The notes beneath the pieces are model-generated. The model did no database searches. It was not told the origin of the DNA and saw only the letters and a program-made list of their open reading frames with translations. The position numbers and the translations under genes are program-made. From Octopus vulgaris (taxonomy: Eukaryota): DNA of 64,000 nt. The DNA lies in NCBI GenBank assembly GCA_951406725.2, contig OX597840.1, positions 33,914,001-33,978,000 of the forward strand, written 5' to 3'. Positions 23,965 to 47,270 of the stretch are shown piece by piece; position 1 is the first letter of the stretch, and each line of letters starts with the position of its first letter.

Positions 23965-24135
23965 AGTTGCCCGTGATTTCGCAAGCAATGCATTTGGAAT
24001 TGGTGAGGCCCCAGCTGCTGGCTGCGTTTCCCTGGCAACAATCGGCGTAGGTGTACACGATGTTTTGTTTGTGTTTGGCCTTTTCTCCGAAACAATGGCT
24101 CCCACTGTAACAGTAACCCATCGAATGGGACACGT
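23965..24135 (-). CDS. Exon 5: six-Cys TB/follistatin-N-like module
   Basis: GYCYSGSHC...YADCCQGNAASSWGLTNSKCIAC; tttgcag / gtgagt; phase 1-1. Confidence 0.9.
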
Positions 24136-24462
24136 CTGCAAAGGATTAAACAGAAAAAATAAAAATAATAATTTATTTATTTATTTATTGGTTTCACGTT
24201 GTTTTAATTTTTGAATTTGAAATGTTGACAAAGGACGATGATGATGATGATGATGGAGATAGTTTCTAATTTAAGCACGAGTCCGGCAATCTTGAGAGGA
24301 GCGAAATTAGTCGATTCACGCGGACACAATAATTACTTGACAGGAGGGACAAAAGGCAAAGTTGACCTCAGCAGGATTTGAACACACAATGCCAGTTGAA
24401 TGTCCACAAAGTACTTTGCCCGATGCCCTAACTTTTTCTGCTCATTCACTACCGTAATAATG

Positions 24463-24520
<58 letters not shown>

Positions 24521-24978
24521 TAACAATAATAATGGTGTCAAAGTTTGGCACAAGGCCAGCAAGTTCACAGGAGAGGGTAAGTTGATTATATGGATCCCAG
24601 TACTCAATTGGTACTTCTTTTATCAACTCTGAAAGGATGAAAGGCAAAGTTGACCTCAGTGGAATTTGAACTTAGAACAGAAAGACATATATTGCTTGCA
24701 ACTGATCAGGTAGCTCCTGGGTTTCATTTGCAGAGTGGGTCCCATTGTTCGACCACAATTTCTATTTGCAAAGGGATACAGAACACATGTCTACTAAAAA
24801 TAAATATCATGGGAAATTATTCACGATATAGTGGTTGTATAATGTCAACATAACGTGACAGTCCCATAAAGGGAATTACACCACCACTATTTAGCCCTAG
24901 GAAGCATCGACGCTTCCTGTCGGCTTTGACACATTTGCTGTGTCCTTATATTTGCAAAGGGGAGGCAAGCACCTCCAC

Positions 24979-25060
24979 CAGCTAGGACTAGCAACCTGAA
25001 GACATGCATGTTTCTGGGTTTTGCCCGTCATCAGTCCAGAGTAGCGAGTCCCGCTAGCTG
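24979..25060 (-). ncRNA. Type I hammerhead ribozyme with extended stem I
   Basis: Minus strand: UCUGGA CUGAUGA CGGG-CAAAA-CCCA GAA ACAUGCAUGU C^ UUCAGG; palindromic stem III; flanks pair further (GGACU/AGUCC, CAGCUAG/CUAGCUG). Confidence 0.75.
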
Positions 25061-25274
25061 AGATGCCTGCCAAGCCTTTGCTAATATATATATTTATAGT
25101 GAAATCTATTCACTGGTCACCGTAATTAGAAATATTGAATTTATAAATTTCTCAGAGACATGAACGGTGGTGGAGCGATAGAGAGAATATATTCACAATA
25201 TATTAGCATCAAAATATATTTTAACATATTATTCTTTCTGACCTTATTGATTATTATGTAACAAGAATGCTTAC

Positions 25275-25379
25275 CAGAAATTCGATCTTCGCAGCGATAA
25301 CCTCCGAAGTCTGAACGACAGGTACATTCATTCGGTTCATCACATGTACCCCCATTTCTGCAGGGTGGGTAACACACAG
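25275..25379 (-). CDS. Exon 4: EGF-like domain
   Basis: VCYPPCRNGGTCDEPNECTCRSDFGGYRCEDRIS; 105 nt, phase 1-1. Confidence 0.93.
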
Positions 25380-25794: not shown

Positions 25795-26192
25795 AGATAT
25801 TGTTATATTTCGGAATGGTCATTTTGCCAGTTTAGCCAATAAAAACACACGCACTATATATTTGGTGTTACTTTGCTCCAGTGTTATTTATTTTTTACAT
25901 TAATCTTAATCTTATTTCGGCCAGAGTTCTTTCGTCACACTCCTGTGACCGCATCAGTGGTCCTTTGTTTGTTTTCTTCTTACTTAAGGAGAGACACAAA
26001 TAAGTAAGAAGAAAACAAACAAAGGACCACTGATGCGGTCACAGGAGTGTGACGAAAGAACTCTGGCCGAAATAAGATTAAGATTAATGTAAAAAATAAA
26101 TAACACTGAAGCAAAGTAACACCAAATATATAGTGCGTGTGTTTTTATTGGCTAAACTGGCAAAATGACCATTCCGAAATATAACAATATCT
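25795..26192. repeat. Near-perfect inverted repeat, 192-bp arms, 14-nt loop
   Basis: 25795-25986 is the reverse complement of 26001-26192 (one mismatch seen); single-arm relative at about 46425-46625. Confidence 0.9.
26024..26068 (+). ncRNA. Hammerhead-like motif with variant core (mirror copy 25919-25963 on minus; third copy about 46547-46590 on minus)
   Basis: CCA CUGAUGCG GUCAC-AGGAGU-GUGAC GAAAG-AA-CUC^UGG. Confidence 0.45.
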
Positions 26193-26736
26193 TTAGATAA
26201 TGTGAGGTATATTTGCCATCTCAACATGGCTAACCACTAAGGGTGGGTGTTACTGTAGCTTGTAGTCCCAGGAGAACATCTCCTCCAGCTGGCTTTAGGC
26301 ACACTTTCTGTGCCCTAAGGTATTTGCAAGGGAAGGTCATACCTCGTTCAGAGATTTATTATTATCTTTAGATAAATATTATTAAAGATGCATAAGAACA
26401 TTTTATGACCATTGTAATTTTTCTTTATTTAATTATTTTATCTATTGGAATTTTGCTTTTGTTATATTTATTATATTTTTGAATTATTAACACATATGCT
26501 TATCAGTCTTTTTACTCTTTACTCTTTTACTTGTTTCAGTCATTCGACTGCGGCCATGCTGGAGCACCGCCTTTAGTCGAGCAAATCGACCCCGGGACTT
26601 ATTCTTTTTGTAAGCCCAGTACTTATTCTATCGGTCTCTTTTTGCCGAACCGCTAAGTGACGGGGACGTAAACACACCAGCATCGGTTGCCAAGCAATGC
26701 TAGGGGAACAAACACAGACACACATACATACATACA

Positions 26737-44937: not shown

Positions 44938-44971
44938 GTTTCTGACGAAGAGCTCCGCTCGAAACGTTAAA
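44938..44971 (+). ncRNA. Minimal hammerhead ribozyme motif
   Basis: UU(U) CUGACGA A GAGC-UCC-GCUC GAAACGUU^AAA; palindromic AACGUU stem III. Confidence 0.55.
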
Positions 44972-45066
44972 TCCTCCTTCTTTCCTTCATTTCCTGAGGA
45001 CGTGGTACACTATACTTGTACCACGTCCTCGTGTTGTGTTTTCTCCTTGTGTTTTCATGTTTGGAT

Positions 45067-47044: not shown

Positions 47045-47270
<226 letters not shown>

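Follow-up and report, generated by a model that had tools for sequence, protein, structure and literature searches.

An intronic hammerhead motif in Octopus vulgaris lies in one copy of a dispersed 352-nt repeat, probably a non-LTR retrozyme

Results

We analyzed a 64,000-nt stretch of the Octopus vulgaris genome (contig OX597840.1, positions 33,914,001 to 33,978,000), hereafter the window, whose own numbering is used throughout. On its minus strand, the window contains a gene (1065-27826) for a large cysteine-rich protein with EGF, VWD, C8, and TIL exons. The best Pfam E value of the EGF-like exon (25379-25275) was 2e-4, and every EGF-type match was below its curated cut-off. A single exon was found upstream of it (27826-27743). 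Downstream are an intron of 1,140 nt (24135-25274), with GT/AG borders and phase 1 at both ends, and an exon (23965-24134) that reads as cysteine rich. The next exon (from 22574) begins a VWD domain (Pfam VWD, E = 2e-7), and the VWD, C8, and TIL exons continue on the same strand. We take this layout to resemble that of hemolectin, SCO-spondin, or mucin-type proteins. The original prediction placed a hammerhead ribozyme in this intron, sense to the pre-mRNA and about 215 nt from the donor of the EGF exon. The donor is at 25274, 214 nt from position 25060, and the host exons and the hammerhead are indeed on the same minus strand.

The motif has the proximal helix I, core, and helices II and III of a type I hammerhead (24995-25040, minus strand). 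All 13 positions of the core consensus written in PMC3088659 are present (C3, U4, G5, A6, N7, G8, A9, G12, A13, A14, A15, U16, and H17). In an alignment of 49 copies of the repeat described below, the core segment C3-A9 (CUGAUGA; 25028-25034) is conserved in 45 to 49 copies per position and the segment G12-A15.1 (GAAA; 25011-25014) in 48 to 49. Helix I pairs 25040-25035 with 25000-24995 over 6 bp, including two G-U pairs. Helix II (25015-25027), delimited from the same alignment and a sister family, has three G-C pairs and a 5-nt loop, and at its foot C25027 (position 10.1) faces A25015 (position 11.1) and is mispaired. Helix III (25002-25011) is a 10-nt palindrome that would form 3 bp and a 4-nt loop in a monomer or 10 bp in a dimer. 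The CUGAUGA/GAAA/GUC elements, the 6-bp stem I, and the palindromic stem III of the original prediction can all be read directly on the minus strand. Its proposed cut between 25001 and 25000 also agrees with the hammerhead consensus, which predicts cleavage after GUC (C17 = 25001), 865 nt before the intron acceptor.

Helix I is extended by a long imperfect hairpin within the repeat monomer (24947-25088), with the motif at its tip, as indicated by folding, self-matches, and compensatory pairs. A 121-nt region of the hairpin has a z-score of -4.45, and none of 200 shuffles folded as well. With a custom hammerhead descriptor, we found two sites in the 64-kb window (24995-25040 on the minus strand and 47210 on the plus strand), compared to 0.013 per shuffle in 300 approximate shuffles, 4 of which had any site. 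The Rfam search proposed with the original prediction came back empty: in three scans, no hammerhead family reached the gathering score or an E value of ≤10. Three unpaired residues, U25043 (48/49 copies), A25042 (49/49), and the last A of loop 2 (48/49), are conserved and are retained in the sister family. We presume that these are the loop 1/loop 2 tertiary contact residues.

The hammerhead belongs to one monomer of a dispersed noncoding repeat. Comparison to 30 loci using BLAST put the limits of the insertion at 25183 and 24824, corresponding to a monomer of 352 nt with a terminal redundancy of 8 nt, and many other copies contain head-to-tail monomer junctions. A 161-nt query returned 1,274 candidates across the 2.8-Gb genome, and scoring 40 of them gave 44 matches; among those 40, the other full-length matches were 90 to 97% identical. 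An exact 34-nt core pattern occurred at 50 places on 24 contigs, while a looser pattern had 265 matches genome-wide and its reversed control had none. The family, with head-to-tail joints, is also covered by contigs from three further sequencing runs that carry three organism labels. Through a 69%-identical copy we reached a sister family (2,169 candidates) whose unit has a similar length, and for which a short-helix-III pattern had 567 matches and its control had none. This sister family (L096-L125; e.g., L051:2021-2335) has a short palindromic helix III and A-U, U-U, C-A, or G-U at 10.1-11.1, and its five examined loci have the same two 3' end points as the insertions described below.

The window copy is an ordinary member of this family. 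Of its 352 positions, 13 depart from the column majority, and two of these lie in the hammerhead: a C-to-U change at 25040, which leaves the outer helix I pair as U-G, and a G-to-A change at 25020 in loop 2, where most copies have G. Its intactness is unexceptional because the core and all helices are also intact in 12 of 28 copies that were selected independently of the core. BLAST reported no second copy of the monomer in the 64-kb window. By eye, a segment at about 26230-26345 (minus strand) resembles the 3' part of the monomer and shares a 12-mer with it, with no BLAST match. We also considered whether the long hairpin could be a MITE, a reading that is ruled out by the extension of the repeat to 352 nt with head-to-tail junctions.

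Retrozymes are defined as noncoding units of 150 to 450 nt that have a type I hammerhead, a GC content under 50%, and no LTR. The octopus repeat has a 352-nt noncoding unit with a type I hammerhead, GC below 50%, and no LTR, and it occurs in hundreds of copies with head-to-tail junctions. Judged from these sequence features, the window locus is a solo monomer derivative of a dispersed repeat and not a locus-specific intronic ribozyme. The original prediction correctly identified a type I hammerhead such as those of Penelope elements and retrozymes. It did not recognize that the motif is one copy of a high-copy 352-nt repeat.

We then asked whether the mispaired foot of helix II reflects damage to the window copy. 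The 49 aligned copies, which were not selected by core pattern, have A at 11.1 in every case and C (43 copies) or U (6 copies) at 10.1. Among 28 copies selected on the left 94 nt only, all 28 have A at 11.1 and 24 have C at 10.1. In a hand count of the first 100 of the 265 pattern matches, the 10.1-11.1 states were C-A (68), U-A (27), G-A (3), C-G (1), and U-U (1). The first 100 of the 567 sister-clade matches, also counted by hand, had U-U (37), C-A (30), A-U (12), U-A (11), G-U (6), and others (4). G-C was found in none of the 200 matches listed for the two families. Because the two patterns behind these lists fix the core and the next helix II G-C pair, they count only intact-looking copies. 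Decay of the window copy is therefore ruled out as the source of the C-A, which, as far as the alignments go, is a family state. The term "near-intact" in the original prediction was right that a C-A mismatch lies at the base of stem II and wrong to treat it as damage. By comparison, the U-A copies of the first family are probably products of CpG decay; across the 49 copies, neighboring CpG sites vary as much as 10.1 does.

Since the sister family carries A-U at the same place, the C-A corresponds to position 10.1-11.1 of a four-pair helix. Alternatively, a G-C pair could be read as flanked by a single additional base on both sides, which is the same geometry under another name; the hammerheads of Penelope-like elements (PLEs) usually have an additional base following A9. 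After 15.1-16.1, 10.1-11.1 is the most conserved hammerhead pair, U-U is the best-tolerated mismatch there, and the search in PMC3088659 rejected any mispair at this position. The octopus family lacks the canonical pair, usually G-C. This lowers its expected cleavage rate but still permits assignment to the type I class because natural U-U exceptions are known. Two explanations of the mismatch were rejected. A trade-off in which C-A arose with a longer helix III, as in axolotl Amex2, is contradicted by C-A in 30 of the first 100 matches with a short helix III. A switch based on A-to-I editing of A11.1, which would allow it to pair with C10.1, found no support: G at 11.1 occurred in 0 of 49 copies and once per first 100 matches in each pattern list. 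Singleton A-to-G changes (26/7,961) were about as frequent as T-to-C changes (21/8,092), a comparison that tests only edits fixed in DNA copies. We found no report of a fixed C-A at 10.1-11.1, or of this retrozyme family, in the literature on octopus and cephalopod hammerheads and on 10.1-11.1, our coverage of which was incomplete. The kind of element, an animal retrozyme hammerhead, is known; the family is new and has one unusual trait, the C-A mismatch.

Substitutions among copies point to selection on the fold. In all 69 alignment rows, double changes in helices occupied 34 cells compared to 8.1 in shuffled alignments, with none of 500 shuffles reaching this number, and they involved three of the six helix I pairs. 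The changes in helices I and II are compensatory between subfamilies. In 38 hand-picked rows from both families, covariation extended to four of the six helix I pairs and the middle helix II pair. Relatedness among copies inflates such covariation controls. Core cells departed from the majority in 2.2% of cases versus 6.7% elsewhere, although the copies are related and the test is not independent. From the helix covariation and the lower divergence of the core, we infer that selection on the fold acted in the source lineages. Covariation thus supports three helices with an open-ended helix I, while the predicted minimum-energy fold differs; by sequence and covariation together, the motif is a real type I hammerhead. 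Selection after insertion was not detectable in single-copy differences (core, 4/356 or 1.1%; elsewhere, 150/8,677 or 1.7%; P = 0.53), a comparison of low power. Within its family, the window copy had no excess conservation; a domesticated hammerhead would be expected to be conserved across species beyond the neutral level.

To describe how the repeat is inserted, we formed 80 insertion clusters from three locus sets and kept 76 (≥150 bp and ≥75% identity). Two arms are placed back to back in 25 of these, 15 of which combine an arm ending at monomer position 350-360 with an arm ending at 56-62. The 51 one-armed insertions end at 350-360 (n = 23), at 56-62 (n = 19), or elsewhere (n = 9). The 5' ends are variable, and inspection by eye showed (TA)n or another simple repeat at many of the 3' flanks. 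Counting whole hammerheads per strand, 69 insertions have at most one, 6 have none, and 1 has two, and we saw none of the long tandem arrays typical of retrozymes among the 76. A preprint (10.64898/2026.07.22.740005) calls a retrozyme "active" when it has at least two whole tandem hammerheads; the window locus has one, and a single insertion of the 76 has two. According to PMC8557442, PLEs leave a footprint of partial tandems, copies that are inverted and 5' truncated, a one-sided tail, and a bias toward microsatellites. The repeat has partial tandems, an inverted truncated arm, and a one-sided tail, and because the layout of the 76 insertions matches this footprint, Penelope-type mobilization is suggested. 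At the window locus, possible degenerate target-site duplications flank the insertion (5' copy, 25184-25195; 3' copy, 24812-24823; minus strand), which are weak and AT rich, with 9 of 12 positions identical.

A direct connection to a PLE was not found. Of 95 loci identifiers, 5 have PLE remnants no more than about 1 kb from the repeat, and these remnants differ in family, side, and orientation. Flanks common to several copies are other repeats. In a comparison with 58 other loci representing two PLE families, the monomer showed no homology, and in searches of these two families we found no repeat attached to an open reading frame (ORF) with RT and GIY-YIG. No PLE match lies between a same-strand pair of repeats 5.7 kb apart (L061). 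The genome also contains young Penelope-type elements (L170-L197) that have many equal-scoring copies, open frames of up to 775 amino acids with RVT_1, and a 3' repeat unrelated to the monomer. Separately, two copies from different subfamilies (L044:1099-1471 and L053:1104-1472) follow the same 374-bp end of a different repeat (90% identical), which may be a preferred target.

Other hammerhead-like sites occur in the window. The intron that precedes the EGF exon holds a near-perfect inverted repeat (25795-26192; 192-nt arms, 99% identical), which is a back-to-back insertion of a young repeat family (288 candidates, 95 to 99% identical). Each arm has a core like that of a minimal hammerhead with C where A9 is expected, as do 7 of 10 other loci, and the inverted repeat would form long double-stranded RNA in the pre-mRNA. 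On the plus strand, a minimal hammerhead-like core with a helix II of 4 to 5 bp (44942-44993), about 80 nt before (TA)n, looks like a PLE terminal repeat. Finally, two facing core-like matches (47201 minus and 47210 plus, within 47143-47263), of which the plus-strand one passes the descriptor, are possibly another back-to-back insertion.

We evaluated the potential for cleavage using ViennaRNA, which ignores tertiary contacts. The hammerhead fold lies 5.4 kcal/mol above a misfold that pairs the core with helix III. The palindrome alone has no stable monomer hairpin and forms a duplex at -13.3 kcal/mol. Together, the misfold and the duplex favor dimer-dependent cleavage. In axolotl, HHR_Amex2, which has U-U at 10.1-11.1, cleaves 22% as a monomer in 1 h and performs better as a dimer, and a mussel hammerhead cleaves at about 0.1 per min (PMC7229834). 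Eight of nine predicted Xenopus retrozyme dimers had no in vitro cleavage (10.64898/2026.07.22.740005), and because of this and the predicted misfold, the octopus family could be inactive. Assuming a mammalian splicing time of 5 to 10 min (PMC2995048), 2 to 4% of transcripts would be cut before splicing at the axolotl rate and about 40 to 60% at the mussel rate. Introns cut by a slower hammerhead are still spliced in mammalian cells, as cited in PMC2995048. Given the few transcripts cut at the axolotl rate and the splicing of introns with slower hammerheads, a host effect of the window copy is unlikely, and slow monomer cleavage that the host tolerates is the most likely outcome. Fast cleavage of the nascent transcript, as suggested in the original prediction, is unsupported in view of the mismatch at 10.1-11.1, the lack of a cis dimer partner in the window, and the 5.4-kcal/mol preference for the misfold, although some cleavage may occur.

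Contigs of five runs presumed to be RNA cover the family. None of them could be assigned to the window locus, and the EGF exon is uncovered in them. Among the joints listed from sequencing-run contigs, there was no empty-site joint for the window insertion. One contig, from a differently labeled organism, spans 25154-25305 and has 30 letters inside the element, below the threshold of 31, and was not counted.

Discussion

We consider it quite probable that the intronic hammerhead is a single-monomer copy of a dispersed 352-nt non-LTR retrozyme family, likely pasted by a Penelope-type element and likely a passenger in the intron. The life cycle described for animal retrozymes consists of transcription, self-cleavage, possible circularization, and copying by PLEs (PMC7229834; 10.64898/2026.07.22.740005). 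In the octopus, source elements would be transcribed as more-than-unit RNA, which the hammerhead would cut, best as a dimer through its palindromic helix III, and a Penelope-type RT/GIY-YIG protein would copy the RNA into AT-rich targets. The C-A mismatch in helix II would make this cleavage slower, yet it would have been tolerated through several expansions. With one hammerhead, the window locus would release neither a unit-length RNA nor a circle; slow cutting as a monomer would leave splicing mostly intact.

The insertion layout would look the same if the repeat were not a free-standing retrozyme but the orphan pLTR of a 5'-truncated autonomous PLE. Nearly all copies are short and single, some loci have PLE remnants within about 1 kb (the 5 of 95 noted above), and retrozymes are derived from pLTRs in 10.64898/2026.07.22.740005. 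However, copies extended in the 5' direction enter another monomer rather than an ORF, the adjoining PLE remnants are inconsistent in family, side, and orientation, and the 3' repeats of the two PLE families compared are not homologous to the monomer. Its canonical layout, with a 6-bp helix I plus extension and a short helix II, also departs from the minimal PLE type of PMC4209133, and we regard an orphan pLTR as decidedly unlikely. It is very improbable that the intronic copy is kept as, or acts as, a regulator that cuts the pre-mRNA and reduces or redirects expression of the VWD/EGF gene. Its sense orientation, intact core, and position 865 nt before the acceptor would suit such a role, conserved intronic hammerheads exist in amniotes (PMC6155905), and at a mussel-like rate of about 0.1 per min a large share of transcripts would be cut within the 5 to 10 min of splicing. 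But half of all insertions would be in sense orientation by chance, an intact hammerhead is nothing unusual in the family (12/28), the C-to-U change weakens the outer helix I pair, and the window offers no dimer partner.

A further alternative concerns activity and is compatible with a retrozyme origin: C-A may have killed the ribozyme early, and the dead motif may have spread because Penelope-type copying needs no cleavage. If U-U is the best-tolerated mismatch at the highly conserved 10.1-11.1 (PMC3088659), C-A should be worse; Naiad PLEs spread without hammerheads (PMC8557442), and the misfold is predicted. Against this, C-A subfamilies keep the core and have double changes in helices I and II. 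Such changes are difficult to account for unless the fold was under selection once the mismatch had arisen, and we judge a dead motif unlikely. At the other extreme, the clade could be a natural tuning series (C-A, U-U, G-U, and A-U, never G-C) in which C-A is an active, selected slow variant discarded by standard searches, with hundreds of intact copies cutting host pre-mRNAs and altering their output. We give this bolder proposal little credence.

Accepting a passenger copy of a retrozyme family, the closest known systems are the metazoan non-LTR retrozymes of PMC7229834 (mussel, 350 to 390 bp; axolotl Rtz_353). They too have a self-paired noncoding monomer of about 350 nt with GC below 50%, one type I hammerhead, head-to-tail junctions, a palindromic helix III, and PLEs in the same genome. 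HHR_Amex2 of Rtz_353 also has a mismatch at the foot of helix II, U-U rather than C-A. In contrast to these retrozymes, the octopus palindrome in helix III measures 10 nt, and most copies comprise 1 to 1.5 monomers instead of arrays. PLE pLTR hammerheads (PMC4209133; PMC8557442) share the partial tandems, inverted truncated arms, one-end tail, simple-repeat targets, and palindromic helix III. They differ in that the octopus repeat has no ORF, a tail of about 60 nt versus 30 to 40 nt for PLEs, a canonical rather than minimal hammerhead, and no homology to the two PLE families tested. The amniote hammerheads in RECK, CTCL, and DTNB (PMC6155905) are likewise type I and intronic and have a retroelement-like architecture; those are isolated and conserved across species, whereas the octopus copy is one of hundreds with ordinary divergence. 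Lastly, the natural U10.1-U11.1 hammerheads of PMC3088659 likewise have a short helix II whose first pair is mismatched, while here a single clade holds C-A, U-U, G-U, and A-U states.

The window locus itself, a likely passenger from an already known class of elements, carries little weight. The significance lies with the family, which constitutes a natural set of variants at 10.1-11.1 and in helix III length for testing the importance of that pair. Searches that reject mispairs at 10.1-11.1, and Rfam, miss hundreds of such motifs in one genome. The family also bears on whether retrozymes need fast cleavage to spread.
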